The position numbers and the translations under genes were made by a program. This document shows, in pieces, positions 13,287 to 52,419 of a stretch of DNA of 58,353 bases. Position 1 is the first letter of the stretch. Every line of letters starts with the position of its first letter. Source of the DNA: a virus (taxonomy: Duplodnaviria > Caudoviricetes); the IMG/VR virus record IMGVR_UViG_3300032245_000439, positions 1 through 58,353 of that record; one strand, given 5' to 3'. The notes below the pieces were generated by a model. It saw nothing but the letters and a program-made list of their open reading frames with translations. It was not told where the DNA came from and did no database searches.

Positions 13287-15263
13287 CTACTTGCGCTTCT
13301 GGATCTCAGTCTTCTCAAGACGACCAAGACCAGAGCCAGCGCCCGCATCCATGTCTTTATAAGAACGATAGACGCCGCCGCCAGCCTTACGCTCGCCACG
13401 CTTGGCGATGTCAGTCTTTTGCAAACGACCTTCACCAGAACCCGCGCCAGCCGTCATGTCCTTGTAGGACGAAGCGACCTTGCTGATGCGGCCTCCAGCC
13501 TTGCGGGGCATAGGAGGTGCGCCAGCAGGCATCGAAGGCATTGGCATCGGCATCGGCATAGGAGCCGGAGCCGGAGCGCCGGGGCCAGCAGCCATCGGCA
13601 CAGGAATGCCGCCGCCAGCAGGTCCGCCAGCGTCAGGGCCGCCAGCAGGAGGCATCATGCCCGGCTGCTGAGGCTTCTGGCCTGCGGAGATGACGATGTT
13701 GATGTTCGTCTTGCCCTTGGCCTTGCCGCCCTTGGCGTAGCCTGTCGGCTTTCCGTCACCCATGTTCGGAGCCATAGCAGGCAATTGCATGCCAGACTGT
13801 GCCGCCGGAGGGATCATCTGAGGGGCGTTGCCGCCCATCGCGCCGCCGTAAAACTTGCCGACGCGCTTGACCTTGCCGCCGCTCTTCTTCTTGTCTTTGC
13901 CTTCGTCGTCATCGTTAAAGGCACCGAGAGCCATAGGAATGAGGCCGCCGAGCATGCCGCCGATGTTCTTACCCTTACGGGCTTCTGGCTTCACCATTTT
14001 CTTGATGAGAGCCTTGTCCATCGCCTCGTCAGAGTGCTTGGCTTTTCCGCCGCGCTTAAGATCCATTGTGCCATGTTCGCGGTTGAATGCACCACGACGA
14101 CGGGCCTCTGCTTCAGCAATGTTATGGCTGACGCTGTCATCACCGAGGTCATCACGGCGCTTTGCCATCAGATAGTCGTCCATCGAATAATTGTTGGACG
14201 CGCCACCTTCTTGCTTACCCTTACGAGCCGACGGCTTCACCATTTTCTTGATGAGGGCTTTGTCCATTGCCTCGTCTTCGTGCTTGGCAGCGCCGCCCTT
14301 TTTATAAGGCGAGCCGGAAGCGCCGACGCCGAAGTTGAAGAACTTGTCCTTCACCACGCCCATGCGCGGGTCGGGGCCAGTGCCGCCGCCAGCGGCGTAG
14401 TTCTGAGCCTTGCCGCGTGTCGGCTTGGAAGCAGCATCGCCCTTCTTCTCGATGGCAATCTGCTCTTTGGTCGTCACTGCGGGCTTGCTCTTGTAGTTCT
14501 CGGCGGGGCCGTAGTTGACCTGACCGCCAGCCTTGCGGGCCTTGGTCGTGCCACCCTTCTTGTAGCCACGGGTCTTGAACGCCTCTGCGGCGGCGGCATC
14601 ACGATCGGCTGCGGCGCTGTCGGCGGCAGACTGGTTCATGATCTGCTGCATCTGACGAGCCTGAGCAGGCGTCACGTCGCTGGCCGGAACCTGAGCGGAG
14701 CCCTTGCGGCTGCGCATGACCATTGTGTTGGTCGGGGCGGGCGTCGTGTCCGTGGCAATGATTTCTTCAATCGTGCGGGGACCGCCAGCCTGCTTAGGCT
14801 TGCGCATAGCAGCGCCGCCCTTCTTCATGCCGCCCATCGTAGCGCCCATAGCCTTTTTGATGGTGTCAGCGGGCATGCCGCCAATGGCGTGACCAGCGCG
14901 GCCGCCACGCTTCAGGCCGCCAACGTGCTTGATGCCTTCGCGGCTCTGGTTGGCTTCCTTCTGGTTGCGGTTCATCTTGGCGATGGCAATGTCCTTGGCT
15001 TCCTTCTTGTCGTTGTTTTCGACAAGGCGGCCACCGGACTTGCGGGCCTTGCGGCCAGCGTGCTTGACGCTCGGCTCGCCCGTGACCTTGCCGCCCTTCT
15101 TAAAGGCGCGACGGCTGACGGGGCGCATGCCCGTCTTCACTTCCGCATTCAGCGGCTCGGCAGGCGTCCAGTTTGAACTATCAGTTTTCACATCCTTCTC
15201 TGTGGAAAGGCGCTTGGCCTTCTCACGGAGGGCCGCACGGGCCTTTTTTGACATCTCGCTCAT
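13287..15263 (-). CDS. Large basic low-complexity protein with repeated K/R-x-x-GG motifs (putative internal head protein)
   Basis: 658 aa, K/G/A/M rich; about 18 xxGG motifs and two internal duplications. Confidence 0.8.
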   Translation of the reverse strand: MSEMSKKARAALREKAKRLSTEKDVKTDSSNWTPAEPLNAEVKTGMRPVSRRAFKKGGKVTGEPSVKHAGRKARKSGGRLVENNDKKEAKDIAIAKMNRNQKEANQSREGIKHVGGLKRGGRAGHAIGGMPADTIKKAMGATMGGMKKGGAAMRKPKQAGGPRTIEEIIATDTTPAPTNTMVMRSRKGSAQVPASDVTPAQARQMQQIMNQSAADSAAADRDAAAAEAFKTRGYKKGGTTKARKAGGQVNYGPAENYKSKPAVTTKEQIAIEKKGDAASKPTRGKAQNYAAGGGTGPDPRMGVVKDKFFNFGVGASGSPYKKGGAAKHEDEAMDKALIKKMVKPSARKGKQEGGASNNYSMDDYLMAKRRDDLGDDSVSHNIAEAEARRRGAFNREHGTMDLKRGGKAKHSDEAMDKALIKKMVKPEARKGKNIGGMLGGLIPMALGAFNDDDEGKDKKKSGGKVKRVGKFYGGAMGGNAPQMIPPAAQSGMQLPAMAPNMGDGKPTGYAKGGKAKGKTNINIVISAGQKPQQPGMMPPAGGPDAGGPAGGGIPVPMAAGPGAPAPAPMPMPMPMPSMPAGAPPMPRKAGGRISKVASSYKDMTAGAGSGEGRLQKTDIAKRGERKAGGGVYRSYKDMDAGAGSGLGRLEKTEIQKRK

Positions 15264-15359
15264 TGCCAGCTCCTAGCTAGGTTTTTTCGGGCGTCCCCGT
15301 TGCCTTCCGGCTGGCGCAAATATACACTCAATTCGTAAGTTTTAGAAATGGAGATCGAA

Positions 15360-15533
15360 ATGGATACCGAAGACCAAGCGCACGGGCTGCGCGACGACAT
15401 CCTCGACCAAGTGCTGGCTCTTTACTATCGCATCCAAGCGGCAGAAGGATGGGCCGAGCCGCCGCGAGACGTGGAAGAAATCATGGATGAAATCTTCCGT
15501 CTCGTGACGCTCGGTCTTGGCATCAAGGAATAA
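15360..15533 (+). CDS. Small hypothetical protein antisense to the late operon
   Basis: 57 aa from ATG 15360; ATGGAGATCGAAATG leader shared with early genes; TTGCCT-N17-TACACT at 15300-15328. Confidence 0.6.
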   Translation: MDTEDQAHGLRDDILDQVLALYYRIQAAEGWAEPPRDVEEIMDEIFRLVTLGLGIKE

Positions 15534-18500
15534 GACCGCGCTTCTTTAAATCAAGGAAGGTGCTGATGCGATCGACAACTTCCGGTGTCATGAATGTTGT
15601 CGGCTGATGCATGCGATAAGTATATGCAAGCTGTGAAGGGTTCTCATACTTCTTCGCATCAATAGCCATCATCTTGTCGATCCATTCTTTGTTCATGACA
15701 TTAAACGGAATGTCATACTCAAAGCCGCCAACATAACCGGGGCCTTCACCGCCAAGCTGCACCTTGTATGTTTTGTGCGGCACTGCGGGTTCTTTGATTA
15801 CACGGCCAGAAGGATCAAGCTTCGCGATGGAATGGCCTGCGCTATAATCTTCTGCGTGCAACAAAGCAGGATCAGTGATTGCAAAACGCGCTGCGCCAAC
15901 GTCTGGCATGCCAGCCTTTTGGAACTGGCCCTGCCCCATAAGCTCAGCCATTTTTGTGCGCGACTTAGCAGGGCCTTCGCCATACAAATAATCAACCAAA
16001 GCTTTGCTCTTGAGGCCCGGCCAATCGCTGTAAGCGGCCCACTTATTTGCAGTGTTCTCGCGCATCTGGCGATCAAATTCTGCAATAGTTGCTTTATCAA
16101 CTTTAGCTGATGGCAGAAGCTCGCGCAGCGTGTCAGTCATGTGATGCGAGTAATCGCCGGAGCGGTTGCCCATTGTGACGAAAGACAAATGCGGATCATA
16201 TCCAGCTTCAGCAGCGGCGCGCGTCTTACTAGCAAGCCCAGCGACAACGCCGGGGTCAGAAGCCCACACAGCTTTGTCCGGCCCCTTTGCAGCAGGACCA
16301 AACATGAACGAGTTGCCAGCCTGCATTTCAACAGGATTGGCAAGTTTCGTTTCGTTAACGGCAGTCAGCAAAGAATTACCAGCGGTGCGGTCACCAAGTG
16401 CTGGGATCAAAGCAGCGCGCTCAAGCTCATATGGCTCTATAAACTTACGCTCACCAGCGGGGCCAGTGATCACATGCTCAGCATGCATTTCCCCAAGGGG
16501 GCGAGACAGGACGGTGTTAGAGATTGAATGCCACTTGCGAGGGTCTTTTTCACGACCACCTTGCGGGACAAAGAAGCCATGCTCACCAGCTTGAGACACT
16601 ACGCGCGAACTAGCAGGACGTTCGGCGCGGATCATCTGCAAAACCTGATTGACCATTTTGTTTTTTGCGGCAGCCTCAGCATCTACCGGCGACATCACAG
16701 CGGCAGCAGTTCCAACGCCAGCAGCCTTCGGTGCATATTCGCGTGCAATCTCAAGCGCACGGCGTCCGGCTTCAGCGATTGGCTTACGGCCATAAAACGC
16801 AGCAGGCAGTGCCGCATTGATACCAGCGCCAAGATAGTCACCTTCTTTGAGGCTCTGAGTAAAGTCAGCGGCCTGCAACGGAATGCCAGTCACCATTGGC
16901 AAGTCAGCAACACCAAAGCCAAGCGTGCCGCTGTCAGGCAGGCCCTTTGAGCCGACGAGTGCATCAGCAGCACGGCGGCGCAGTTCTGTCGTGTAAGACG
17001 TGTTGGGGGCGTCGCCCGCAATCATTCCGCCGATCACGTCGCGCGCACCAAGTTCGAGCGGGCGCATAGTTGCTTCGCCTTCGCGAACAGGGTTCTCACG
17101 GAAGCGGCGCACGGCGTTCGCCCAGTTCTCACCCATGACGGCAGGATCCATAGGCGGCTTGTCTTCAAAACTCCCAAGCGTGTCGAGCGCCGCACGAGTG
17201 CGTTGGCGTTGTGTGCCGACTTCCTCGCCATCAGCGTGATGCTCGCGCACGACGCGAAGCGCGTCATCAACTTCGCCGCCGTGCTCGCGCTTCATGCGCG
17301 ACGCCATCTTGGCATCAGCCCACGCGCGCAGGTCGCCAAGCGTCCACTGTGCGTAAGGCTTTCCGTTGAACATGATGTTTGCATTTGGCCCGACGCTCTG
17401 GGGAAAAACGTCGGCCACGCGCGCGTCCTGCGGCAGCGTGTTGGCCTTCACAGCGCCCTGAGCGCCTTGGAACCAGCCAAGATATGCGTTGCCCGGCGTC
17501 GCGGGAATGCCAGCCTTGTTGAGCGTCGGCAGGATCTCTTGATTGAGGTGATAGTCTGCGGCCTGCTGCTGAAGTGCGGCAGTGTCCTTGCCCTTCTTTA
17601 GTGCGACCAGCTCGGCGTCGCTCATGCGGCCGTAAAGCTCAGGGTTCATGCGGCGAAGCGTGTTCGCCCATGTGCTGTCGATGAAACCAAACAGTCCGCC
17701 AGCAGACGACGTCTTGCTCTGCGCGTTCGGGTCGTCAGAGCTTTCCTGACCACGGATGGCAGCAAGCAGAGGCGTGCCGCCAGTCATGCCGCCACCGATC
17801 GGCGCATATGAAGTCACACCGTCAGGCAGGCCAGCGGTGCGACGCGCGTCTTCGGCAGCCTTTTCCTGACGCATGCGCTCGGCGTCGGCGCGGAAGAAGT
17901 CACGCGCCTCGTTCGGGTCACCCCAGTTGATCTTATTCTCGTCTCCGACCAGTTTCTCGCCTGTGGACTGATAGACGGGGCCGCCGTCAGCGAAGCGAAA
18001 CTCTTTGCCACCCATGACGGAGAGGCCGCCCATAGGCGGACGCGAGACGTTGATGTAGCTCTGTCCGTCTTGGTTGCCGCGAGACAAGCCGACGCCGTAG
18101 CCACGCTTGTCACCCTGCTGCATCATTTGCGCAGACAAGTTTGCGCCAAGGATCTCCTTGGCAAGCGACAGCGTGTCGCTCGAATATTTTGACGGAACAT
18201 CAACCGGACGGGACGAGCTATAGTTGACGCGGAAGCCCTCTGGCAGCGCCGCGCTGGCTTGATAGCCGACGATTGGCTTTTCGTAGTCCTTCACACCGAC
18301 AAGCAACGGACCAGCCGACACACGGCCAACGTCGAGTGTTGGCGCGAATGCGGCCGTGGTAAGTTCACCAAGCTCGCGCTTGCCCTCACCACCTGCGGAG
18401 ATGCCTGCATCTTGCGGCAGCATGGGGCGACGCACGCCCTCGAATATCTGACGCGGATCCCACTTGGGGTCCGCCATGCGCTCAGGGCTGACGAACTGGA

Positions 18501-20169
18501 TGTCGTCCAAGCTCACTTCGCCCTTCACGCGCTCGCCGTTGGAGTGGTGCTCGCGCACTTCGCCGCCATGCGAGAACATCTGATCTGTAAAGTGTTTGAA
18601 AAGAGCGTCGCGAGTGATGGGAACATTCCCATAGTACTCTTCAGATGGCTTATAGAATTGGACGTTCCCAATACCCAAACCTTCAAGATGCTTTGCAGTT
18701 TCTGAAGCGCCTTCAGGGACAAGAGCGCCAGCAAAATCTTCGCCTTTAACGGAACGCTGAGGCTTCCCCTCGAAATATTCAGTCGGCATTGTGCGCAGGC
18801 GGGTCAGATAGTCGCCAAATTCGTTTGCGGTATCAGGCGCAACATTCCAGCGATTAACAAGCCACTCCGGCCCCTTCTCGGCAATTTCAGCAGCATTTTT
18901 TGCGCTGAAATTACGATTGAAAGCATTGCTGCGAATTTCACGCATAAGGCGAGAGTATTCTTCTGAGGCGTTTTGAGACGGCCACGCAAACTCATTCATG
19001 TTGACTAGCCTGTCACGCGCACCCAAAACGTCATCAACGTTTTTGAACTCTGGAGTAATAAGCGCGCGCAAATAACCAGCACCACTTGTGCCCGTTTCGC
19101 CGCCGCGAATGCCATTCATGCGCAACCATTCTGTATACAGATCAAGCGGAGACTTACCCTCTTGAGATGCAACATCTCCCAATGACTTGCGATGTCCGCG
19201 ACCAAGTCGTGGAGTGTAAGCGTCATTTGGGAAAATTGGGTTAGCTTCAGACGGGACAGCAAAAACTTCAGGCTTTCCAACAAGCTTTACGCTACCAAAA
19301 CGGTCTGCCCCATGTTCAGGCTTAAAAATTCCCATGCTAGGCGCAGGCAGGCCACCGATAGTGCTGTAAAATTCAACAGCAGAAGGAGACGCATTGTGTG
19401 TCACGATCATGCGCTCAGCTTCAGGCAACGCACGGCCAGCGGCAAACTTAGCGCGAACAGCCTCAAGCGCCTTGTCGACAACCTTCTTGCCACCAGCATG
19501 ATGCTCACGTTCAACTTCGCCGCCACGGTTCTCAGTCAGGCGCGGGATCTCAGGGTCAAACGTGCCGAGGTTGCCCGTGGCTGACTTGAGCTGGCGCTCG
19601 GGATCGTAGACAGCAAGGTTTTTGTTTTTTCCTTCACGCACAAAATATGCATCGTGCCCAAGCTGTTTAAGTGCGTCTTGAATAGGTGTTGCCTCAATAG
19701 TTTCCCAAGAACCTTTGGCAATGTCAGGGATAGGGCTACGCAAATACGGATCAGTTTTAAAACGCTCTCGCATCAAACGATCAAGCGCCTCGATGTGCTT
19801 AGGGTTTTCGTAGTCAAACGGGTTTTCTGCGCGCACATGCATTGGCATTACATTTTGCGCAAAATCTGTGTCTTGAATTGGCCTCCATTTATTAGAGGCC
19901 TCATCAAAAACATGTTCAACTGTTTCATTTTGCGCAAATGTATTGGCAAACTCTGGGTTGGTAGTCAGAAATGTTGGACGATTTTCCGTAAACTCTGAAA
20001 CCTCGCGCGGGGTTCCATGATACCACGTCGGCTCAGCAATCTGTGCAGGCGTGCCAGATTGCCACCTTGCAAGATTGGCCGCACGCTCAGCCGGATCAGC
20101 GACGTGCTTTGCAGCGCGGGCTTCCATAGCGGCCTGAAGAGCCTTCTCTACCAGCTTCTCTCCGGCCAT
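15523..20169 (-). CDS. Large polyvalent virion protein: N-terminal ADP-ribosyltransferase-like (ART-PolyVal) domain, polyvalent-protein-type domain, lytic transglycosylase-like domain, uncharacterised C-terminal domain
   Basis: 1548 aa directly after the portal. WYHGT..FLT.NP.FA..NVMP..NPFD..GHDA..QLKSATGN (ART-PolyVal-like); DAYTPR...YFEGKPQRSV..EDFAGALVP; IRGQESS.DPNA....SSAGGLFGFIDSTW (SLT-like). Confidence 0.8.
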   Translation of the reverse strand: MAGEKLVEKALQAAMEARAAKHVADPAERAANLARWQSGTPAQIAEPTWYHGTPREVSEFTENRPTFLTTNPEFANTFAQNETVEHVFDEASNKWRPIQDTDFAQNVMPMHVRAENPFDYENPKHIEALDRLMRERFKTDPYLRSPIPDIAKGSWETIEATPIQDALKQLGHDAYFVREGKNKNLAVYDPERQLKSATGNLGTFDPEIPRLTENRGGEVEREHHAGGKKVVDKALEAVRAKFAAGRALPEAERMIVTHNASPSAVEFYSTIGGLPAPSMGIFKPEHGADRFGSVKLVGKPEVFAVPSEANPIFPNDAYTPRLGRGHRKSLGDVASQEGKSPLDLYTEWLRMNGIRGGETGTSGAGYLRALITPEFKNVDDVLGARDRLVNMNEFAWPSQNASEEYSRLMREIRSNAFNRNFSAKNAAEIAEKGPEWLVNRWNVAPDTANEFGDYLTRLRTMPTEYFEGKPQRSVKGEDFAGALVPEGASETAKHLEGLGIGNVQFYKPSEEYYGNVPITRDALFKHFTDQMFSHGGEVREHHSNGERVKGEVSLDDIQFVSPERMADPKWDPRQIFEGVRRPMLPQDAGISAGGEGKRELGELTTAAFAPTLDVGRVSAGPLLVGVKDYEKPIVGYQASAALPEGFRVNYSSSRPVDVPSKYSSDTLSLAKEILGANLSAQMMQQGDKRGYGVGLSRGNQDGQSYINVSRPPMGGLSVMGGKEFRFADGGPVYQSTGEKLVGDENKINWGDPNEARDFFRADAERMRQEKAAEDARRTAGLPDGVTSYAPIGGGMTGGTPLLAAIRGQESSDDPNAQSKTSSAGGLFGFIDSTWANTLRRMNPELYGRMSDAELVALKKGKDTAALQQQAADYHLNQEILPTLNKAGIPATPGNAYLGWFQGAQGAVKANTLPQDARVADVFPQSVGPNANIMFNGKPYAQWTLGDLRAWADAKMASRMKREHGGEVDDALRVVREHHADGEEVGTQRQRTRAALDTLGSFEDKPPMDPAVMGENWANAVRRFRENPVREGEATMRPLELGARDVIGGMIAGDAPNTSYTTELRRRAADALVGSKGLPDSGTLGFGVADLPMVTGIPLQAADFTQSLKEGDYLGAGINAALPAAFYGRKPIAEAGRRALEIAREYAPKAAGVGTAAAVMSPVDAEAAAKNKMVNQVLQMIRAERPASSRVVSQAGEHGFFVPQGGREKDPRKWHSISNTVLSRPLGEMHAEHVITGPAGERKFIEPYELERAALIPALGDRTAGNSLLTAVNETKLANPVEMQAGNSFMFGPAAKGPDKAVWASDPGVVAGLASKTRAAAEAGYDPHLSFVTMGNRSGDYSHHMTDTLRELLPSAKVDKATIAEFDRQMRENTANKWAAYSDWPGLKSKALVDYLYGEGPAKSRTKMAELMGQGQFQKAGMPDVGAARFAITDPALLHAEDYSAGHSIAKLDPSGRVIKEPAVPHKTYKVQLGGEGPGYVGGFEYDIPFNVMNKEWIDKMMAIDAKKYENPSQLAYTYRMHQPTTFMTPEVVDRISTFLDLKKRGLIP

Positions 20170-20173
20170 CTTC

Positions 20174-22477: not shown

Positions 22478-22480
22478 GGA

Positions 22481-22684: not shown

Positions 22685-22694
22685 TTTCGGTTCC

Positions 22695-24386: not shown

Positions 24387-24664
24387 CAATCCCATTCCTG
24401 ATAGATCGACGGCCTCGAGGGGCATGGCATCCAATACTTCAACGCGGCATTTGGCTGCCACGCGCCGTCCATCGTGATCCAATTATATCCTTCGCCATTC
24501 GGTATGCGGACCCACTTAACTTGGTCGATGCGAATACCGTCTTCATCAGTGACGAGGATGAAATGATCCTTCGGCGCAGTCTCAATCGGATGCCATGTGC
24601 CTGCGCGCGGCGACACTCCAAAGATGTGCGCAATATCTTCTTCACTCATCGATGCGTCACTCAT
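24386..24664 (-). CDS. DUF551-like protein
   Basis: WHPIETAPKD...YWMPCP motif. Confidence 0.7.
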   Translation of the reverse strand: MSDASMSEEDIAHIFGVSPRAGTWHPIETAPKDHFILVTDEDGIRIDQVKWVRIPNGEGYNWITMDGAWQPNAALKYWMPCPSRPSIYQEWD

Positions 24665-25358: not shown

Positions 25359-25359
25359 A

Positions 25360-40669: not shown

Positions 40670-40695
40670 ATCGAGCGGAATTTATGGAGATCGAT

Positions 40696-41412: not shown

Positions 41413-41419
41413 GGAGATC

Positions 41420-42108: not shown

Positions 42109-42110
42109 CG

Positions 42111-42137
42111 GTGGGCGCGAAAGCGCCCACTTTTTTT
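42111..42137 (+). terminator. Intrinsic terminator
   Basis: GTGGGCGC-GAAA-GCGCCCAC followed by T7. Confidence 0.85.
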
Positions 42138-42147
42138 GGAGAGAAAA

Positions 42148-42564
42148 ATGCTGACGCTTGAAGAATTGCATGAACATTACCGCGCCGTCCGTGCGCGCAT
42201 TAACGACAAGTCAAAATTCATTCAGCCAAAACCTGAACCCAAGCCGGAGCCTGTCGTCATTCAGTTCACTGAGCCGACGTTCGTCAATCCGTCTGACAAG
42301 ATCATCTACCGCATCGCGCAAAAGCATGGCCTCAGCGTCGCAGATCTTAAAGGGCACTCACGCAAACAGCACATCGTGTATGCACGCCAAGAGGCCGCCT
42401 ACGTCCTGCGCTTGGAGCGTAACCTGACACTGAACCAGATTGGCTCGCTGCTCGGACACAAGGACCACACGACCATCCTGCACGCAGTGAAGTGCCACGA
42501 AAAAAAGCTCGCCAAGTGTACCGATACGCTTGGCGAGCCTAGTCATGTTTCGTCAGCCCTCTAG
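42148..42564 (+). CDS. DnaA C-terminal (domain IV) DNA-binding domain protein
   Basis: II..IA.KHGLSVADLKG.SR...IVYARQEAAY.......LTLNQIG.LLG.KDHTTILHAV; no AAA+ domain. Confidence 0.88.
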   Translation: MLTLEELHEHYRAVRARINDKSKFIQPKPEPKPEPVVIQFTEPTFVNPSDKIIYRIAQKHGLSVADLKGHSRKQHIVYARQEAAYVLRLERNLTLNQIGSLLGHKDHTTILHAVKCHEKKLAKCTDTLGEPSHVSSAL

Positions 42565-42592
42565 CGGTTTTGGACAACTAGCGGGCCTGATA

Positions 42593-42919
42593 ATGATGCA
42601 CAGCGGCGGCGATGCAATCAAGAAGATACTGGAGCTTTGGGTGGACGGCATGTCGTTTTCCCAAATCTCGCTTGAAGTTGGCCTCTCTAAAAAAGAGGTC
42701 AGCTATCATGTTTACACGCTGCGCGTGAGCGGCGCGGTCAAGCTTCGCGCAAAGCCGAAGGTGACAATCATGGACCTGCGCTATAGCTCTTGCCGATACA
42801 TCGTCGGAAGCGACGAGGATCTCGGCACGCTGTATTGCGGAGAGACCGTCAGCCAACGCTCATATTGCAAAGAGCATTACAAGCTTTGCTATATGCCGCC
42901 TGAAAAGCGTCAGCGTTGA
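42593..42919 (+). CDS. GcrA-like cell-cycle regulator
   Basis: LELW.DGMSFSQIS.EVG N-terminal HTH; IMDL..SSCRYIVG......YCG......SYC.EH C-terminal motif; start uncertain (42545 or 42593). Confidence 0.8.
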   Translation: MMHSGGDAIKKILELWVDGMSFSQISLEVGLSKKEVSYHVYTLRVSGAVKLRAKPKVTIMDLRYSSCRYIVGSDEDLGTLYCGETVSQRSYCKEHYKLCYMPPEKRQR

Positions 42920-43746: not shown

Positions 43747-43756
43747 CGACCGCTCC

Positions 43757-46700
43757 TCAGATGTGCTTGTTGGCGATCTCAAGAGCGTGGGCGACACTGT
43801 CGTCGCTTTCGTTCAAGAGAGGCTCAGTGACTTGTGTGACCTGCTTTTTGGCAGCCTTTGAGAGCGCCATCAAGTTGACTGCGCCGCCTGTGGCGCGGCC
43901 AGAACGATTGCCGGGTCCACGGATTGTGAGCGGCGGCGCTTCTTCCTGCTGATAGGGCTGCTTCGCGCCCGTGATGAGCGTGTTGGCAATTGCCTCAGAC
44001 GTGCTGCGCATCGAATTTGGGCCTGCCTTTGTAGGCGCAGCCATCAGAAGCTTGCGGGCAAGTTCAGGGTTCAGCAGCGCCTCAGTGATGAGGTCATCGA
44101 CCTTCTGCATGCCAGCCGCACGCATGCCACCAACAATCTCAGCGCCAACGATAGTTGTGAAGGCTGCCAAGCCAGCAAGAGGACCGCCAGCAGCACCGAC
44201 GCCTGCACCGCCAACGATTGGAGCTGTAACTGCGCCCACGCCCCTGACCATACTGTCCCAAAGAGACTTGCCCTTTGCCAGCATCGGCGCAGTGTCCTGA
44301 GCCGTTGTAGGGCGGCCGGGCAATGCGCTGCCAGTCGTCGAGCGTGCGCTGCGGTTCAAGTCATCGGCCAGCGCCTGCATGGCATTGACCTGATCTTTGT
44401 CGAGCACCTGCTCCAGCGTGCGGCGATTGTCGCGCACGAACTTCTGGAAGCTCGCCGAATTGATAAGGTTTGCCTCAGACGTGCCAGCCTCAGCGGTCGA
44501 GATGAAACGCTGGCGGATGTAGTCGGCCACAGCGCGCTGGAGACCAGCCGACGCATCAGGGCTTGCCGCCGCCGCGTCTGCAAGGTTGCGCATGGTCTCG
44601 GCCGCATTCTTTTGGCCGAAGATGCTGCCCACTACCTGAGAAACAGTCTCGGCGTCTTTAGCACCCATGACCTTGCTGATTTCAGTCTTTTGGGCGTTCT
44701 CGATCGTTGCGCGCGAACGTGCCGCAATTTCCATTGCAGCATCAGAAACTTTCACTGTTGAGGAGAGCTTGTCCGCGACGTCAGGAAAAGCGCGCAGCGC
44801 ACTTTCGTGCTTGTTCATCCAAGCGTCAAACTTCTTGGGGTCAACAAGTCCAGTTTTCGGATCTTTGCTTTCACTAAACGCGCGAGAAACAATGTAGTCG
44901 TTCATTGTTTCCGTGGCGCGCTTGTCATTAGCTACAGCCTTTATGAAACCTTGTGCCGTCTCAAAGCCTGTGTCGCCAGCGCGAAAGAACTTAGGCCCGA
45001 CCTGAGCGTCAAAATTGAGCTTGTATTGGCCCCTTCCCTGACCGGGGCGCAAAGCTTCGCCGACCGGACCCTGACGGAACGTCTCAACATATTCCTTGTT
45101 GGCTGTCTTTGCCCTCTCAAGGTCTCTGATCGCTTTAGGCGTCAGGTTCGGCTCAAGTGTCTGAGGTGCCGTTTCGCCGCCCAAGCGCCAGAGGTCGCGC
45201 ACTCGTGCCTCAAGCGTGTCTTCAACAGCCATCTTGCCAGCACGAACAGCATCAGCCTCATACTTCGCCTGATTTTCAACGGCGTCGTCGATCGCATTAA
45301 CCACGCTATTTTTCATTTGCGTAAGTTGGCGATAGGTATTTGTTTCGCCATTCGTGCGAAGCTCTGCGCGCAAGGCGTCGCTAATGCGTGTGTCGAGCGC
45401 ACGCAAGCTTGCAAATGGAATGACGTCAGAAATGCCCTGAGCGGCAGTTACGATCGCGGCCAATTCACCTTCGAGCGGCTTTGCCAGATCAGTACCAGCT
45501 TCTGCCGCAATGCGGTCAGCCGCGTCGCGCACGTCGCGAGAAACGACGTTAAGCTTTCCTTCGGGGTCAATCGACGCATAAAGTTCACGACGCTCTTGAT
45601 TGGCGACATCTTTCGCCTCCTGTGTAAATTGACGGAGAAGACGGCCATACTCTTCAGGAGTTCCTTCGCCGCCCATCTGCTCAATCGCTTGAAGGGCACG
45701 ACTTTCTGCGCGCTGCACGGTAGCAGCCTCACGCATCTCAAGTGCATTGAGTTGAGCGCGCAGAATTTTGGGAACTTCTAAAGGAGATCCTTCTGGAGCA
45801 ACGCCTTCAAGCGTCTCCTGACGTGCAGCGGCCTGCTCGCCGCGACGCTCAAGGAACTTGGCCGGATCTTGTGTTTCAGCCTGACGCTGCATCTGTCCCA
45901 TGCCGACGTCACCCGTCAGCTCAAATGTCGTAGGCTTAGAACCGGAAATCAGTTCCTGTTGTTCATTTTCAATGATGTCTAAGGCACGGTTGCGGCTTCC
46001 GGTGCCTTCTGCAAACTTGCGTGCGGCAGCCTTCTCAGGGTTCCAGATTGGCTGGAGGTAATCAAAGGCGGCACTGCCAGCCTTGGGGAGCATCTTCGCA
46101 CCCTCGACGCCAAACTGCGTCAGGCCTGCGCCGCCAATACCGCCAACCATGCCAGCAATCGGCTTCCAAGCGTCCGGCACATTCTCCATCGCGAACTCAG
46201 CGCCAGCACCACCGCCAAGATTGGCAAGGACGTTTTCTGCGGTAGCTGCTTTAGAACCGGGCCTGCGAGCACCAAAGATCTTTTCAGCAGTCTCGCCAAA
46301 AGTAATGCCAGACGGCGGAGCTTTGGGCAGCGCACTAGCCGCACGCATGCCCGCAGCTTCAACACCAACCTGCGGCACGACTGCATAAGCCACGCCCTCA
46401 CCGCCAGCGCGCAGCATGCGCTCAGCTACGTTCTTTGCAGGAAACTTTTCGGGGGTGACGCCAACGTCGGCCATGCGCTCTGAAACATAGTCAGAGCCAA
46501 GAAATGGTTTTTCAGCAGTTGGAATACCAACCTTTTTCATGCTCCAATTCACAAGATCAACGGGCGCACCAATTACATTGGCGAGACCCACGTTGAAGCC
46601 GTGAAATGGCTGCATCAACGTACCAGCTACTGTCGGCGAAGATTTAGGTTCGCCATATGCAGACAGTACATCAATCGGCACGTTTGTAGCATCGCCAGAT

Positions 46701-46786: not shown

Positions 46787-46787
46787 T

Positions 46788-49700
46788 TTACTGGCCCATA
46801 GCTGGTGTTGAGAACAGCGTCTTCGGATCAACCCGCGTGATTGTTTGCTTCGCTTCAGGGCCATTATACATGAAAGGATCGCCCGGCTTCAGCCCCATGC
46901 GAGCAAAACCTTCGGCCTGACTGATGCCAGTGCGCTCGTCTTTCTTTGTGCTGAGATTTTTCGGCACAACGTAAATAGTTCCCGGCGTCCACTTGTTGGC
47001 TGGCGGCAAGTCCATGCCACGGAAGTTGCCCATCTGGCGGTCTGCGGCTTCTTCAAACTTGGCGATCGGGTTTGCCTTTGACCACGCCGCGTAATAGGCC
47101 GACGGGCTGCGCCAACCTTCTTCTTGAGAAGCGCGCTGCCACGCCAGAGCAAAAGCTTCGGTGCGGTTAAGATAAGCAAGACCAGACTTGATCATCTTGA
47201 AGTTAACTTCTGGGAGCTTGTTAGGCTCAGGGACACCCTTATCATTAACAACGGTGAACTCAGCCTGTGCGAAGCGTGGGTTGGCTGCCTTGAGCGTTTG
47301 CAGCACAAGGTCAGGCGCAATCTTTTCAGCCTGTTGAACTGCCGCAGGGTCGCCAGATGCAACTTTCTGAGCCAATTCGGTGTAGCCAAAGCTCTGCATA
47401 ATAGCACCAAGGCCAGCAAGCTTGCCCTCTCCGCTGCCGCTTTCAAACATTTTGAAAGCATTGATAAGGCTGTGGTAGTGCTCGCGAGCTTGAGTGACCC
47501 CGTAACCCTTTGTCCTAAAATCTTCCAAGAACTTAGCGTCATCTTCGGCTTGGTTTTTAGCAAGGCTGCTACCTTCTGACACTTTTGTGCCGGGTGGGTA
47601 ATTGCCGGGCTGAATAATACCGCCGCCAGCGGGCGCAGCAGGACGAGCAAGGACGAGCTGACCAGTTTTTGGATCAACTGTCGCAACTTTTGGCGCAGCT
47701 TCTTGATCAGGCGTCATTTTAGGTACAGATGCCGGAGGCATCTTTACGCCGGGCGGCAAAAGAACCTTTTCGCCAGTCGGACCAATTTCAGGAGCAAATT
47801 CGCGCTCAACATTTTTTGCTGTGCGAGATTTCGCTTCCTCAACCTGAATAGAGATCGCATTTTCAATTTCAGTATTTGCATCTACGCGCTTTTGCGCGGC
47901 TTCAGCTCGCCTATCTTTCGCAAGATCTGCAAACTTCTTAGAAGATGCCTCAAGGCGGGAGCGCTCTTCAGGCCCCTTTGTCAGGCCAGACCTGCGAGCT
48001 TCTTCTTGCGACTGGCGCAAGTAATCTTTTGCTTCGCCTTCAAGACGAGCGGCCTCAGCTTCAAGGGACATAGGGCGGCGCTCTTCAGGAAGGTAATCAA
48101 ACAGTGTTGGATTAGCGCGAGCAGCCTTGATCAGTTCAGCCTTTGTCGGAATGCGAGCGCCATCAGCTTCGGCAGGGGCTGCCGGAGGTGTGACGACGTC
48201 TTCTTTCTTTTCAGCAACAGTCGGCGCAACAGGAGGTGTTACCGTCTGTGCGGGGCGAGGCTCAATCTTTGGAGCCGTGTCAGTGATCACTTTTTTGGCC
48301 GTGTCGATGACGTCAGCGTCAGGCTTCACGACTGGCGCAGCAGATGTAGCCGCAGCCGCAGGTGCGGGTAATGCCTTCGCAGCAGTTGTGCCGGGAGCAA
48401 TAAACTGGCTTTGACGGCGGCCCATTTCGGCCTCGTCTACCCAATCACCTTGGATTGTGTCTTGATACATATCCTTGCCGTCAATGAATGACGGACCTTT
48501 GAAACGGCCCTTCGACAGCTCAAGGCGCTTGGCAAGCTGCTCGGCAGCCATCTTCTGCATGTTAGTGTAAGCGCCAGTGCCGCCGACAAGGCCCTCGCCG
48601 ATCGCACCGAAAAGCGTCGGGTTGCGCGAGGCAAGCATCGACCCGAGGCCAGCAATTGCCGGAACCCAGAAGGTCTCGTCTTTGCTCTTCAGCGTGTCGC
48701 CAACACCAGTTGCGACCTTGCCAAGACCGCCAGCGACAGAGCTGGCCGCGTCGCCAACCGACGACAGGAATGATGGATCCTCTTTCTTTTCTTCGGGCAT
48801 AACACGCTCGCCGTCAGCGTGATGCTGACGCACAGCGTCGTTTGTCGCCTTCTTGTAGTCAACCATCTTCACGCCACCGAGGCCCTTCACGGCCTCTGGG
48901 TGATCACGCTCGACGTCCTGAGCGATGAGGCCCATGCGGGTCTTATCGTCGCCCTTGTACTTAAAGCGGTAGACGGGCTGGCCGTCGTTGAGCTTACCAA
49001 TCTGCTCGATGTCAGTTTTGGCGCGCTCATCTGAAAGACCAATGAATGGCAGAACAGCCATGATGCCTTCGCCGATCGTGCCAGCGGCAGTGCCAAGCGT
49101 GCCAAGCAGACTTGCGCCTTCAGCAGCACCAGCAGCACCAGCAAGACCAGCCTCAGCGGCACCAGTCGCGGCCGCAGCACCTTCGCCACCAAGTGATCCA
49201 AGCATCTTGGAGCCAAAGTCGAATGCATTCTTGCCAGCCTTCGCAAGGCCAAGGGCCTGAGACGCCTGCTGAGCGCCAGACGGACCCTGCTGAGGCTGCG
49301 CCAGTTTACCCGGCTGCATTACCTCATGTTTTTCAAGCGGGGCCGAAAGGGTATTGCCAAGCGTGTTGTTCTCATCTTCAGGGTTGCCGTATGGGCTTGC
49401 GCCCGCATTTACATAGCCCTGCGTATTGTGGTGCTGACGAACGATCAGACCGCCACGGGCGGCAAAATCAGTTGCGAACATGGACGGGTCAAAAGCCTTC
49501 ATGGCTTCAGGGTCAATCGCTTCGTTCGCGCCGACGTTAATGTTCGGGCCGGGGACAAGACCTTTAGGTTCCGGCGCAGGGGCCGGAGCAGGCGCGGCAG
49601 CGGATGTCTGAGCAGGCTTGGTGTAGCCTGTCGAGCTGGCAGCTTTTGGGGTAGTTTCTTTTGTTGTTGTAGTTTCGGCGGGCTTCTTCCAAGCCTGATA

Positions 49701-51350
49701 AAGCTCGTTGCCCTTGGATGTCAGGTTGGCAATCTGGTTTGCCTGCTCAATGCCGTTCTTTTGCTGCGGAAAGCGCAGCTCGGCAGCCTTCAGCATTTGA
49801 ACCTGAGCAGGCGTCAAAGCAGCGCCATACGGGCCACCAGAGCCAAGACCAGCCTGACCACCCTTCGGCCCATAATAGGCAAGGGCAGGGTTCACATAGC
49901 CAGCCTCAGCATAGCCACCACGAGCAAATGCACCGGGGCCAGACACGAGGCCGCCCTGTGACGAGCTGTCGTAATTCTTCAAGAAGTCGTCAAGCGCCTT
50001 CGTCTTGTAATCAAAATACTCTTGGCCCGACTGAGACTGGCCCATGTCGGCACCGCGAAGCGAAGCCAGCTCAGCCTGAGCGCCTTCCTTAGACCCGAGC
50101 GAGTAGCCCGTAGCCTTAGGAGCAAGAAGGCCCTGAGCGGCCGGATTGATTGCGCCAGCCTGAATAGGCAAGCCACCGCCGCCAATCATCTGCGGAAGTT
50201 GAATAGCTCCCAACCCAGCCACCTGCGGGCTGAGCATCGCGCTCGGGGCGTTGATGTTGTAGGCGTCCATGCCGACTTCAGGACCGCCAGCAGCCTTGTG
50301 ATCACGCACGGCATCATTGGTCGCGTCGCGGTAATCAACCGTCAGGTAGCCGTCGCGCTTGCCAACGGCGTCAGGGTGATCCTGCGCAACTTCCTGCGCG
50401 AGCAGGCCGATCTGCGTGCGGGGGTCGCCCTTGTAGTTGTAGCGGTAGATATTCTGTCCGTCGTTCGTCTTGCCGACTTTCTGAATGTTTTCCTTCAGAC
50501 GCTCGTCCGAGAAGAAGCCGCCACCGCCCGTTTGCGTGCCAGATGTCGTGTTGCCAGACAAAGCACCCGTGCCCGTCGCAATGTTCGAGAGGAACTGCGT
50601 GAGCTGGAACGGATATGCCTGCTGCTGCTGGAACTGATTGTAGAGAGCCTGCAAGCCAGCCTGCTGCGTCTGCTGTTCTGTCTGACCAGCGGCAAGCTGG
50701 GCCTGAGCACCAGCAAGGCCAGCCTGCTGAGCGCCCGTGCCGAGCTGACCAAATTGACCACCAGCCTGCAACGCACGATTGGCATTTGCCTGCTGTGCGG
50801 CAAGGCCGACGCCCTGCTGCTGCTGTGCGGCCGCGAGGCTGTCAGCAAATCCCTTTTGGAAGATTGGGGCCATAGCCTGAGCCGTGGCAAGATCCTGCTG
50901 GCGAGCGAGATTTGCTGCAACAATCCCTGAGCGATCGCCACCAAAGGAGCGAGCCGTCTGAGGATTGACGAGGCTCGAACGCTCGATGCCCTGCTGCTGT
51001 TGCAATGCACGAAGCGTCGTGTCAGCAACGCTCTGCGTGTAGGGATTATAGAATTGGCCCACATTTAAGGCCTCTGGATTGACACTCTGAGCGCCAGCGG
51101 CGGTCAGGCCAGCACCAGCCTGATAGAAGGGCTGTGCAGCTCCAGCCATGTAGTTGGTGTTTTGAATGCCAGCCTGCTGCGTAGCCGTAAGGGGAGCAAC
51201 AAAGGCATTTGGGTCGTTGCTGTAGGCCTGATAGGGCTGTTGGGCGACCTTCTCAGCACGCGCGTTGACGGCATTGTATCGCGCCAAGACCTCTGGCGGG
51301 ATTTCCATCTTCTGCGTGGTTTGTGTTGAGCCCTTGCCGCCGCCACCCAT
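46788..51350 (-). CDS. Internal virion/ejection protein with two internal S74-like autocleavage modules
   Basis: 1520 aa; MGGGGKGSTQTTQ start and Q/A-rich region typical of podovirus pilot proteins; FSDERLKENI...GLLAQEV...VDY and LSDERAKTDI...GLIAQDV...VDY. Confidence 0.82.
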   Translation of the reverse strand: MGGGGKGSTQTTQKMEIPPEVLARYNAVNARAEKVAQQPYQAYSNDPNAFVAPLTATQQAGIQNTNYMAGAAQPFYQAGAGLTAAGAQSVNPEALNVGQFYNPYTQSVADTTLRALQQQQGIERSSLVNPQTARSFGGDRSGIVAANLARQQDLATAQAMAPIFQKGFADSLAAAQQQQGVGLAAQQANANRALQAGGQFGQLGTGAQQAGLAGAQAQLAAGQTEQQTQQAGLQALYNQFQQQQAYPFQLTQFLSNIATGTGALSGNTTSGTQTGGGGFFSDERLKENIQKVGKTNDGQNIYRYNYKGDPRTQIGLLAQEVAQDHPDAVGKRDGYLTVDYRDATNDAVRDHKAAGGPEVGMDAYNINAPSAMLSPQVAGLGAIQLPQMIGGGGLPIQAGAINPAAQGLLAPKATGYSLGSKEGAQAELASLRGADMGQSQSGQEYFDYKTKALDDFLKNYDSSSQGGLVSGPGAFARGGYAEAGYVNPALAYYGPKGGQAGLGSGGPYGAALTPAQVQMLKAAELRFPQQKNGIEQANQIANLTSKGNELYQAWKKPAETTTTKETTPKAASSTGYTKPAQTSAAAPAPAPAPEPKGLVPGPNINVGANEAIDPEAMKAFDPSMFATDFAARGGLIVRQHHNTQGYVNAGASPYGNPEDENNTLGNTLSAPLEKHEVMQPGKLAQPQQGPSGAQQASQALGLAKAGKNAFDFGSKMLGSLGGEGAAAATGAAEAGLAGAAGAAEGASLLGTLGTAAGTIGEGIMAVLPFIGLSDERAKTDIEQIGKLNDGQPVYRFKYKGDDKTRMGLIAQDVERDHPEAVKGLGGVKMVDYKKATNDAVRQHHADGERVMPEEKKEDPSFLSSVGDAASSVAGGLGKVATGVGDTLKSKDETFWVPAIAGLGSMLASRNPTLFGAIGEGLVGGTGAYTNMQKMAAEQLAKRLELSKGRFKGPSFIDGKDMYQDTIQGDWVDEAEMGRRQSQFIAPGTTAAKALPAPAAAATSAAPVVKPDADVIDTAKKVITDTAPKIEPRPAQTVTPPVAPTVAEKKEDVVTPPAAPAEADGARIPTKAELIKAARANPTLFDYLPEERRPMSLEAEAARLEGEAKDYLRQSQEEARRSGLTKGPEERSRLEASSKKFADLAKDRRAEAAQKRVDANTEIENAISIQVEEAKSRTAKNVEREFAPEIGPTGEKVLLPPGVKMPPASVPKMTPDQEAAPKVATVDPKTGQLVLARPAAPAGGGIIQPGNYPPGTKVSEGSSLAKNQAEDDAKFLEDFRTKGYGVTQAREHYHSLINAFKMFESGSGEGKLAGLGAIMQSFGYTELAQKVASGDPAAVQQAEKIAPDLVLQTLKAANPRFAQAEFTVVNDKGVPEPNKLPEVNFKMIKSGLAYLNRTEAFALAWQRASQEEGWRSPSAYYAAWSKANPIAKFEEAADRQMGNFRGMDLPPANKWTPGTIYVVPKNLSTKKDERTGISQAEGFARMGLKPGDPFMYNGPEAKQTITRVDPKTLFSTPAMGQ

Positions 51351-51364
51351 AGCCTTACCTCAAT

Positions 51365-51856
51365 TTATTCGGCAGCTTGTTTCCAAGTGCCTGTGCGGGT
51401 TCCGTAAAGGAAATAAGCCCCTGACGGCTTGCCAAAAATGCGCTCATACATGCGGACTTTCCCTTCCGTCCGGTCGGACGAAAGAACTCCAATTGAGAGC
51501 GGCATTCCAAGCTCATCAGCAACCTTCTTGCTAAAATCACACAACTTGCGAGCACGGCCACCCTTCGCTGAACGGAAGTCAGGGTGAATGAAGACGGCAC
51601 GCTCCTCAAGTATCTCTTGGTCACTATACCAGATGTTGCCAATCCTCAAAAGGATAGCGCCCTGCGGTTTCTCTCCCGGCACTCCAACAAAGCCAATGAT
51701 GCCCTTTTCGCGGTTGAGGGCGGGCCAAATTTCAGCAAGCAGGCGAACCGGGTTCGGCTCAACAAAACCATTTTCGTCGCAGGCCAGCATCGCAAGTTCC
51801 ATGATGTCATGGACGTCATCTGGAGTTCCGACCCACACTTTCAGTTCTGGCTGCAT
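51365..51856 (-). CDS. GNAT-fold acetyltransferase-like virion assembly protein
   Basis: WYSD..LEE..VFIHPDFRS..GGRARKL...K..MYER; positioned before the ejection proteins; start at ATG 51856. Confidence 0.7.
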   Translation of the reverse strand: MQPELKVWVGTPDDVHDIMELAMLACDENGFVEPNPVRLLAEIWPALNREKGIIGFVGVPGEKPQGAILLRIGNIWYSDQEILEERAVFIHPDFRSAKGGRARKLCDFSKKVADELGMPLSIGVLSSDRTEGKVRMYERIFGKPSGAYFLYGTRTGTWKQAAE

Positions 51857-51867
51857 GTTAAGACCCC

Positions 51868-52419
51868 TCAGTCTTTCTTTGGCCCCGGAAGTTTTTGGAG
51901 CGTCTTGATAAGCTCGGCGCGTGTGGCTTTGACCCACTTGTCGAGTTCGCGATGACCAGCGTCGAGATCACCGCCGCCAGCCCAAATCACCTCTTCAGGA
52001 GACAGCACATATTCGCCACCTGCCGCAACGATCGGCACGGGATTACCCACATGGCCGCCCGTCGCGAGCGCGTTGTAGGGAGCCTTTTTGAACATCAGCT
52101 TGACGGCGCGGAAGCCTGCCATCGTGTTGCCTTCGCCAAGCGACGAGACAATGTCTGCGGGCAGCACATAAGACCCCGACGGCACATGCATCGGAAGGTG
52201 ATCTGTGCGACCAGCCACGGGGCTGTGGATCGGGCCGACGTGCAGCTTGTTCACCTGCTGCGGCATGTCCGACTTTTTCAGCATGCCACCCTCGGCCTTA
52301 GCCTTGCGTGCAGTGTCAAGCGCGATCGCGACGGCCTGCTTCTGCGGGCGGCCCGTGCCGACCAGCTCGCTAATGTTGGCGCTGATAGATTTCTGGGAGG
52401 AACCTTTTTTAAGCGGCAT
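51868..52419 (-). CDS. Protein with basic N-terminus and duplicated AxGG...G(S/E)YVL module
   Basis: MPLKKGSSQKSISANI...KAEGG...GRTDHLP..VPSGSYVLPADIV...ATGG...AGGEYVLSPEEV. Confidence 0.75.
   Translation of the reverse strand: MPLKKGSSQKSISANISELVGTGRPQKQAVAIALDTARKAKAEGGMLKKSDMPQQVNKLHVGPIHSPVAGRTDHLPMHVPSGSYVLPADIVSSLGEGNTMAGFRAVKLMFKKAPYNALATGGHVGNPVPIVAAGGEYVLSPEEVIWAGGGDLDAGHRELDKWVKATRAELIKTLQKLPGPKKD

Follow-up and report, generated by a model that had tools for sequence, protein, structure and literature searches.

Short peptides that target head-internal proteins of viruses, or direct their maturation, are a known kind of system. A short peptide governs the incorporation or maturation of such proteins in bacteriophage T4, with its capsid targeting sequence and cleavage by gp21, and in phiKZ, where gp175 carries out the processing; the adenovirus protease acts on (M/I/L)xGG-x sites in the precursors of core and cement proteins. 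Encapsulin cargo-loading peptides and microcompartment encapsulation peptides address unrelated cargo into a protein shell, that of the encapsulins having the HK97 fold, and polymorphic toxins carry demarcation motifs, VENN in CdiA and PxxxxDPxGL in Rhs proteins. How unrelated proteins destined for injection are chosen and loaded is known only for a few model phages (T4, P22, T7, P1 and phiKZ). Here we examine a whole podophage contig of 58,353 bp (IMG/VR record IMGVR_UViG_3300032245_000439; the whole of this stretch is called the window in the following), whose two late-gene blocks, both on the minus strand, encode proteins punctuated by a short glycine-glycine motif. Among them is a polyvalent protein, a class of phage proteins whose genes adjoin those of portals and whose members are predicted, in the available text of PMC5512222, to be packaged and injected.

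A sequence-only reading of this DNA had noticed basic-x-x-GG and RxHHAxG strings in at least six late proteins and had proposed that they represent a cleavage site and/or a capsid-loading tag, by which unrelated effector domains could be chained, packaged and released. Our analysis shows that the motif is real and specific to these proteins, that it stands at module joints and tails, that it is selected as a peptide, and that it is spread over a large clade of phages. With regard to its function, our tentative interpretation is a tag for docking or encapsidation, of which each exchangeable module might carry a copy.

Results

One two-part motif in six late proteins

All strings quoted in the sequence-only reading were located in the genes to which it had assigned them, and the motif indeed recurs in six late proteins, those of 1548, 658, 1520, 1009/1035, 183 and 81 amino acids (aa; Table 1). 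In a set of 73 open reading frames (ORFs; 18,571 aa), for which genes were chosen by a codon-usage score, the broad form of the motif occurs 17 times in the six pooled carriers, where 2.4 occurrences are expected, and twice in the other 67 ORFs (4.8 expected). The six late carriers are consequently enriched and the other ORFs are not; the portal, the terminase and the major capsid protein (MCP) of the window lack enrichment, as had been noticed before. Taken singly, the 183-aa protein has three copies of the broad form (0.13 expected; reached in 2 of 2000 shuffles) and the 81-aa protein two (0.06 expected; 3 of 2000 shuffles). The pattern R[EQD]H[HK]x1-3G yields six matches in the 73 ORFs, three each in the 1548-aa and the 1520-aa protein and none elsewhere, at an expectation of 0.01 per protein that no shuffle out of 2000 raised to the observed count. 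The 1035-aa ORF has a single copy, which does not reach significance within the window.

The two spellings of the motif, basic-x-x-GG and RxHHAxG, proved to be one when 72 non-identical instances from the cargo proteins of related phages were aligned. The core reads [F/Y/H]-x-x-G-G-x-[V/I/L], frequently with a G before it; in its general form it is aromatic/basic-x-x-G-G-x-V/I/L, and in the family of the basic 658-aa protein it takes the form [R/K/Y]-K-x-G-G-[K/R]-[A/V/P/T]. An amphipathic helix, xxALxx[A/I]R, follows 16 of 74 cores, compared with a background of 3.6%. Cores also occur in tandem, in which case the helix ends with R-E/Q-H and the next core opens with H or F; examples are YADGGHV-daALhllRQH-FDEGGFL and YASGGEV-dqALhivREHH-ADGEAV from two relatives (L013 and L005) and EHGGEV-DDALRVVREHH-ADGEEV from the window. 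The consensus of the second copy is R-E/Q-H-H-A-D-G-E-x-V. As aligned, RxHHAxG is the end of the helix joined to a second copy of the core, with H at the aromatic place and E as a possible replacement of the second G.

Position of the motif and level of selection

To locate module borders independently of structure models, we compared mosaic cargo proteins in pairs and took the points where their homology breaks. Seventy of 80 motifs lie no more than 25 aa from such a breakpoint or no more than 45 aa from a terminus (random placement: mean 32.5, maximum 46 in 1000 trials), and a motif is found at a distance of 25 aa or less from 55 of 283 junction clusters (random mean 30.8, maximum 52). The proposal that the motif punctuates module boundaries is thereby borne out.

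Many copies are found at protein ends. The last motif lies within 60 aa of the C-terminus in 14 of 30 complete motif-bearing cargo ORFs, a short peptide common to unrelated cargo that is placed as in cargo-loading peptides. Recurrent endings of cargo proteins include GGSVEDRALMLVSKQA-stop, and among 40 homologues many polyvalent proteins end with ...[Y/F]xxGGSV-EDRALMLVSKQA-stop or similarly; the proteins of some relatives stop 0-5 residues after the core (...YMRGGAV-stop, ...YHARGGVAK-stop). Such extreme C-terminal copies are easier to reconcile with a docking peptide at the protein end than with a site of cleavage. This bears on an alternative that we regard as unlikely, namely that the motif is the site of a maturation protease, of phage or host origin, which would cut at or next to GG, free the domains, and chop the 658-aa protein into small basic DNA-associated peptides, as in adenovirus, T4 and phiKZ. 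Its occurrence as a short motif in exposed linkers between domains would suit such a protease, and GG-type sites are used by the adenovirus protease and by pS273R of African swine fever virus. However, cleavage 0-5 residues before a stop codon would release almost nothing, the conserved V at +2 and the helix 3-15 residues downstream exceed typical protease subsites, and the second G is absent in the HHADGE form.

Clustering at 40% identity separates the sequences flanking the motif into 44 groups upstream and 38 downstream, so that the enrichment does not stem from a few inherited copies. The codons for Gly and the flanking residues vary synonymously, and copies share no more than 12 nucleotides (nt). 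Unrelated flanks and varying codons together indicate that selection acts on the peptide. A repeat or recombination signal at the level of DNA was rejected as the main cause, since copies share at most GGCGGCGAAGT(T/G) and their codons vary.

These data also bear on the possibility, which we hold to be doubtful, that the motif is a structural hinge and recombination joint, a flexible linker cassette that travels with its module without specific binding or cleavage. The breaks in the homology of mosaic cargo at the motif (55 of 283 junction clusters) would follow from it, as would the variation of the cargo locus between the portal gene and that of the 658-aa protein (0 to ~7 kb) and the finding that genes of some relatives start or stop inside the two-part linker. 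On the other hand, with ~12 shared nt at most and synonymous codon variation, DNA homology at the joint is weak, and a passive hinge requires neither a conserved aromatic residue at -3 nor V/I/L at +2. Nor does it call for 12-17 copies in a core, non-mosaic, disordered protein (median of 15 matches in 120 homologues of the 658-aa protein), or for strict conservation in the non-mosaic 1035-aa tail (17 of 17) and at aa 118-124 of the 183-aa protein.

Cargo C-termini of some relatives (L031, L069, L077 and L082) bear AT-hook-like RGRP tails after motif and helix. Such tails were set aside as an explanation, given that they are absent from the window.

Conservation across a large clade

A portal search of IMG/VR confirmed 465 relatives among 467 stretches, and a search with the second block confirmed 574, which bear the 183-aa gene, among 598; 80 loci were kept from each. 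Counts for the head module refer to the 45 loci that hold both a portal gene and a homologue of the 658-aa protein. All 45 loci share one gene order, in which the portal gene is followed by a variable region and then by the genes for the 658-aa homologue, GroES and the scaffold. The variable region is missing from L039-L041 and reaches up to ~7 kb in other loci.

In 62 cargo ORFs (54,766 aa, those of the window included), the strict motif occurs 82 times, where 6.4 occurrences are expected and 200 shuffles yielded 15 at most; in 45 homologues of the 658-aa protein it occurs 65 times (2.1 expected). In 219 portal, large terminase (TerL), GroES and scaffold proteins it was found twice (6.5 expected). 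This distribution, with many internal proteins carrying the motif and portal, TerL, GroES and scaffold free of enrichment, would also be compatible with a maturation protease. Forty database homologues of the 1548-aa protein contain 96 motifs (6.9 expected), homologues of the 1520-aa protein 71 (10.4 expected), and those of the 183-aa protein 25 (3.0 expected). Nine of the 40 homologues of the 1548-aa protein, the most distant ones, are free of the motif, which therefore belongs to the phage group and not to ART-PolyVal proteins in general. Enrichment is partial in pelagiphage HTVC027P and absent in Caulobacter phage RW. The neighbouring 118-, 190-, 263- and 295-aa families show no enrichment, and the 28 motifs of the 691-aa family (14.4 expected) are inherited positions of a conserved folded protein that are counted repeatedly.

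The conservation of the motif in related phages, which the sequence-only reading had put forward as a check, thus extends over a large clade, and its carriers form a very large set of uncultured aquatic podophages. In the literature searched (supplements outside its scope), we found no description of the motif, of its two-part form, its position at joints, its amplification or its spread in the clade.

A disordered basic protein with many copies

For the 658-aa protein about 18 copies had been noticed. Of its 25 GG runs, 17 are preceded by K or R at a distance of no more than three residues, and 12 distinct GG sites have K/R at -1 or -2. The form [KR]xGG occurs 11 times (2.5 expected from composition; not reached in any of 2000 shuffles). 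In the ESM Atlas the protein has a predicted local distance difference test (pLDDT) score of 0.42 and a predicted template modelling score of 0.15, and it falls only into unnamed viral clusters. The KGG repeat of stress proteins was considered for it and discarded, as Pfam gave no match at all to this protein at E <=0.01. At least 1729 homologues were found at E <=0.001 among the 8000 candidates scored; the 120 homologues listed have medians of 488 aa, 19 GG runs and 15 [KR]x0-1GG matches. Conserved parts of the family are the N-terminal 60 aa and the C-terminal RKAGGxxYRSYKDMxAGAGSGxGRLEK modules. At the C-terminus (positions 13371-13505) the module RKAGGxxxxSYKDMxAGAGSGxGRLxKTxI is duplicated and strongly conserved in relatives; the end of the scaffold, ...LQKEGRLN, faintly resembles it. 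Motif spacings in the family cluster at 5-9 and 20-45 aa, from which a maturation protease would produce small peptides.

The gene for a GroES homologue follows directly after that of the 658-aa protein, and this neighbourhood enters into a further explanation, which we consider highly improbable: the motif would act after injection on a host target, for instance as a mimic of the GroES mobile loop (basic-x-x-G-G-I-V-L) that engages host GroEL, or on another host hub protein. The mobile loop of the phage GroES reads EKTKSGIIL, and it and its counterparts in relatives (KTKGGII/KTKGGLI) resemble the copies RKSGGRLV and AARGGLIV. It is the hydrophobic triplet of the GroES mobile loop that contacts GroEL, and most copies of the motif lack a hydrophobic triplet, having a charged residue or Pro at +1 and one hydrophobic residue at +2. 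The position at module joints would be left unexplained, and resemblance is all that the comparison offers.

The polyvalent 1548-aa protein

The gene for the 1548-aa protein starts 4 nt after the portal stop codon, and its position is kept in 45 related loci. Pfam assigns ART-PolyVal to aa 49-204 (38.8 bits, cut-off 31.2) and PBECR5 to a region from aa 241 (34.5 bits, cut-off 25). A lytic transglycosylase (SLT-like) at aa ~799-958 is recognized by PHROG 4067 and by a PDB match to phiKZ gp144 (E 1.1e-5), and aa 1000-1548 form a conserved C-terminal region. A peptidase family was not reported for this protein by Pfam at E <=0.01. The first motif, from aa 213, follows ART-PolyVal and precedes PBECR5, and another, from aa 961, follows the transglycosylase. 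Homology to relatives breaks at 223, 535 and 964, with motifs at 226, 535/544 and 980, and in an alignment of 32 homologues the residues G964 and G965 show at least 90% conservation.

An AlphaFold2 (AF2) model of aa 1-1200, based on 32 sequences, contains confident ART (~40-200) and SLT (~830-960) domains. pLDDT is below 50 at aa 212-229 and dips on either side of a helix (967-979), at 962-966 and at 979-982; linker 2 lies inside a low-pLDDT stretch (520-557). The remaining copies are situated in long low-confidence stretches, and their position says little. Consequently, the placement of the motif at domain boundaries of this protein, as previously suggested, holds for the ART and SLT borders and for the breakpoints 223/535/964, but not demonstrably for the copies in low-confidence stretches of the model. 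When aa 950-1000 of the 1548-aa protein were offered as partner to alignments of MCP, scaffold and the 183-aa protein, complex prediction gave a score of 0.00; its four-chain design is unlike that of the calibration, and the result speaks neither for nor against binding.

Predicted self-cleaving domains in the 1520-aa ejection-type protein

That no prohead protease is recognizable in this DNA had been part of the sequence-only reading. Our scans, which covered 40 ORFs, indeed report no prohead-protease family, but two internal stretches of Peptidase_S74, a self-cleaving domain, had been overlooked in the 1520-aa protein (65.7 bits, cut-off 22; Pfam). The hallmark of Peptidase_S74 in endosialidases, a catalytic Ser with a Lys five residues downstream, is present in both domains. 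Residues 1-341 match a ~390-aa "DNA ejection protein" family that ends with an S74 domain, and residues 742-837 match the end of another ~390-aa virion protein family; this composition makes it look as if several parts, each formerly closed by a self-cleaving domain, had been fused. Its relatives possess one or two such serines at similar places. Judging from its domain make-up, the 1520-aa protein is probably a self-processing three-part fusion, and if the S74 domains are active, it would be cut into three pieces without a separate protease. Polyprotein processing, as formerly proposed, would then occur in the window through a known device, by a mechanism different from cleavage at the motif. 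Neither the 1520-aa protein nor the MCP matched a PDB entry by sequence.

Both domains share the Ser/Lys pair with the Peptidase_S74 domains of endosialidase tail spikes and of MYRF. They differ from the usual arrangement, in which the domain stands at the end of a fibre (as in the 1388-aa fibre of the window, according to Pfam), in that they are internal and present in two copies in an ejection-type protein; moreover, their last helix is short and runs directly into the motif (AVRQHH-ADGERV). A precedent for an internally working S74 domain that frees the N-terminal part of its protein is MYRF, as described in the available text of PMC3742440 and PMC3828593.

The 183-aa family as a second site of insertion

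The family of the 183-aa protein comprises 7268 cluster representatives at E <=0.001 and 954 at <=1e-30. Many of them contain inserts of up to ~1300 aa between the N-terminal hairpin and the C-terminal core, at a point that corresponds to the KAEGG site of the window protein; ART-PolyVal was detected in three of ten long members scanned. The inserts are again bounded by the motif, of which 150 representatives (P0162-P0311) carry 62 copies (12.4 expected). H60, D73, H74, H78, E96, E136, H156, D160 and VAAGGEYV are invariant in 59 aligned members, and the AF2 model based on 59 sequences has a mean pLDDT of 76.0, with values below 50 at aa 44-55.

The idea of a maturation protease would be favoured by invariant His, Asp, Glu and Ser in the 183-aa protein, which two motif sites flank in the manner of self-processing proteases. 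A hidden protease nevertheless found no support in the searches made with this protein: Foldseek found no match for its model in the PDB (E <=0.001), and Pfam, PHROGs and NCBIfam gave no function; a wide VIA-align fold search reached at best Z 6.0 over 40 residues, confined to the N-terminal hairpin. Apart from S74, no protease family was recognized by Pfam (40 ORFs scanned), PHROGs (20) or NCBIfam (10); ~33 small ORFs lay outside these scans, and several conserved head proteins could not be assigned to a family. Cleavage at the motif thus finds no support in these scans or in the copies 0-5 residues from a protein end.

The 1009-aa protein is the 1035-aa ORF read from Met27. Its tail is the best-conserved part of the family: RA[TS]GG is kept in 17 of 17 distinct family tails, which have the form RATGGAVNLMALSKAAKK...DDTVAxALEVANKHI. 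Positions 8094-8815 encode a series of small proteins of very basic composition (55, 83 and 81 aa), which was noted together with L003 (22424-24735). The 83-aa protein ends with ...SRINKSLRKWDC, resembling the end of HTVC027P gp52 (...SRIRQARRRWKC), and HTVC027P has a string of small basic proteins between portal and GroES, with FKKGG, YKVGGRV and YKKGGSV.

Gene order, relatives and further observations

In the order of transcription, the head block encodes an Sf6-type small terminase, the large terminase, the SU10-type portal, the 1548-aa and 658-aa proteins, GroES/Cpn10, a 301-aa coiled-coil protein that is probably the scaffold, a 188-aa and a 197-aa protein, the MCP, small basic proteins, SU10-type adaptors and the 1388-aa fibre. 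The second block encodes a 691-aa structural protein, 118-, 183- and 190-aa proteins, the 1520-aa ejection-type protein, the 1009/1035-aa protein and a 295-aa fibre. The nearest deposited genome is that of the uncultured freshwater phage MW202675 (66% portal identity). By portal, the nearest cultured relatives are the pelagiphages HTVC027P (34%) and HTVC023P (32%), followed by the Roseobacter phages CRP-901 and CRP-902 and Caulobacter phages of the RW type. GroES is counted among the core genes of HTVC023P-type phages in the available text of PMC9599517. The label "P22-like", which the phage had been given, is only loosely right, considering its SU10-type portal and adaptors, its Sf6-type small terminase and its HTVC023P-type cultured portal relatives.

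Several observations lie outside the motif-bearing proteins. Adjacent plus-strand genes at 42136-42919 encode a protein with a DnaA C-terminal helix-turn-helix domain and a GcrA-like cell-cycle regulator, a pair suggestive of an alphaproteobacterial host whose cell cycle the phage may disturb. A TET-associated glycosyltransferase (TAGT; 34565-35476, E 1.4e-46) suggests hypermodification of DNA bases. At the contig ends, two minus-strand ORFs of 561 and 924 nt (1-561 and 57430-58353) run off codon-aligned and may be one gene spanning a circular junction; no terminal repeat of the contig was found. ORFs at 531-1916 and 33192-33926, among them a protein with a Gly_rich_2 domain (924-1916), have a third-position GC content of 0.30-0.40, compared with 0.55-0.85 elsewhere, and are possibly recent acquisitions.

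Table 1. Positions of the motif-bearing genes, their linkers and domains, and of reference genes in the window.
Feature	Positions	Strand	Basis and remarks
Small basic protein, 81 aa; FKRGGKT and RKSGGGVL	8570..8815	minus	
MCP, HK97-like, 301 aa	9398-10303	minus	PHROG 371
GroES (Cpn10) homologue	12568..12969	minus	Pfam 32.1 bits, cut-off 21.1; between 658-aa gene and scaffold
658-aa basic, G/K/A/P/M-rich protein, predicted disordered	13287..15263	minus	Core gene between cargo gene and GroES
1548-aa polyvalent (multi-effector) protein	15523..20169	minus	Pfam, PDB sequence match, AF2 model
Linker 4, aa 961-984: REHGGEV-DDALRVVREHH-ADGEEV	17218..17289	minus	Motif, helix and second motif, directly after SLT
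Motif FADGGPV, aa 726-732	17974..17994	minus	Close relatives read FADGGEV at the same site
Linker 2, aa 532-546: FSHGGEV-REHHSNGE(RV)	18532..18576	minus	
Linker 1, aa 213-243: ENRGGEV-EREHHAGGKKV-VDKALEAVRAKF	19441..19533	minus	Motif, variant and amphipathic helix
Portal, SU10 type	20174..22477	minus	Pfam; anchors the variable cargo locus; without motif enrichment
Large terminase	22695-24482	minus	
C-terminal tail of the 1009/1035-aa protein: RATGGAV-NLMALSKAAKK...DDSVAHALEIANKHI	43760..43909	minus	Best-conserved part of family
1520-aa ejection-type protein	46788..51350	minus	PHROG "DNA ejection protein"; motif copies aa 346-361, 475-484, 630-648, 839-850
S74 domain 2, aa 773-838, SDERAK at 773	48837..49034	minus	Pfam, sequence
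S74 domain 1, aa 281-345, SDERLK at 281	50316..50510	minus	Pfam, sequence
183-aa protein	51868..52419	minus	N-terminal helical hairpin; KAEGG aa 41-45; conserved core; [YFL]AxGGxV aa 118-124; invariant VAAGGEYV

Discussion

The reading of the motif as a docking or encapsidation tag is based on three properties. The motif is common to unrelated proteins whose only shared property is their final location; it frequently occupies a protein terminus and continues into a conserved amphipathic helix, a feature known from cargo-loading and encapsulation peptides; and it is multiplied in a conserved, disordered, basic protein. If the motif is such a tag, every cargo module would bear its own copy, so that swapped or chained modules would still be recruited into the procapsid, and the 658-aa protein with its ~12-17 copies would act as a multivalent hub or matrix. 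We infer that binding would take place during assembly, to the capsid interior, the scaffold, the portal or the 658-aa protein. The tag may be removed after use, by analogy with T4. Given the conservation in the clade and the position at module boundaries, the earlier suggestion that the motif lets unrelated effector domains be chained and packaged is plausible. The explanations considered here are not mutually exclusive, for a tag at module borders is also located where recombinants survive.

Several points weigh against a docking tag. No binding partner of the motif was identified, and more distant phages, whose portal, GroES, scaffold and MCP are homologous, are hardly enriched or not at all, so that a receptor among these proteins is not implied. 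The location of the carriers inside the virion is itself predicted from gene position, PHROG names and the polyvalent-protein literature (PMC5512222, in its available text). A docking tag does not by itself explain why E takes the place of the second G in the HHADGE form. The AF2 model of the 1548-aa protein is of low overall quality, with a mean pLDDT of 54.7 and 650 of its 1200 residues scoring under 50, and a location in a linker is consequently crisp only at the ART and SLT borders. Finally, counts over relatives are not independent events, and the regular expressions were refined after inspection of the data, which makes the tests on relatives the fairer ones.

A bolder version of the docking tag, which appears quite unlikely to us, is a plug-and-play cargo system in which a tag of ~7-20 residues (aromatic/basic-x-x-GG-x-V with or without the amphipathic helix) would suffice to address any module into the head. 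The 658-aa protein would then form a multivalent, condensate-like matrix, or fill the same receptor sites, and organize cargo and ejection proteins around the portal. If true, this would be a phage counterpart of encapsulin cargo-loading peptides and would explain why effector modules shuffle so freely at the two places of insertion, one behind the portal gene and the other within the 183-aa protein.

Should the motif be an addressing tag, it would be a simple means of tracing injected effectors in metagenomes. The loading of foreign proteins into phage heads would gain a rule that can be tested, and the evolution of modular weapon proteins a concrete example. Should it be a cleavage site, it would point to an unrecognized maturation protease.

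Comparison with known systems

Among described phage proteins, the 1548-aa protein resembles polyvalent proteins in its combination of ART-PolyVal, PBECR5 and transglycosylase and in the neighbourhood of the portal gene (PMC5512222, available text). Processing by an embedded MPTase is proposed there, and no MPTase was detected in the 1548-aa protein. An inter-domain motif of the kind reported here is not described in the available text of that paper, in which the words "linker" and "glycine" each occur 0 times.

With T4 and phiKZ, the window has in common a short peptide shared by unrelated head-internal proteins. Both phages have a recognizable prohead protease and cleavage motifs (LxE and S/A/G-x-E), and the T4 tag is N-terminal, whereas in the window no such protease was recognized and the motif is inter-domain or C-terminal, and repeated. 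The adenovirus sites are alike in that a GG motif with an upstream hydrophobic residue is present in several internal proteins, very basic ones included, and not in the major capsid protein. The adenovirus, however, infects eukaryotes and uses a cysteine protease of clan CE, and its hydrophobic residue is one position nearer to GG; a clan CE-type protease was not found in the window ORFs scanned.

Encapsulin and microcompartment peptides share with the motif that they are short, C-terminal or inter-domain and Gly-rich, that they have hydrophobic anchors or an amphipathic helix, and that they come with flexible linkers. The encapsulin peptides have another sequence, and the system considered here is a DNA-filled phage head with a putative receptor. 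VENN and DPxGL, like the motif of the window, are short conserved motifs that mark the joint of exchangeable effector modules; they occur once per protein, before one C-terminal toxin, whereas the motif described here stands at every joint and in many copies in a non-mosaic protein.

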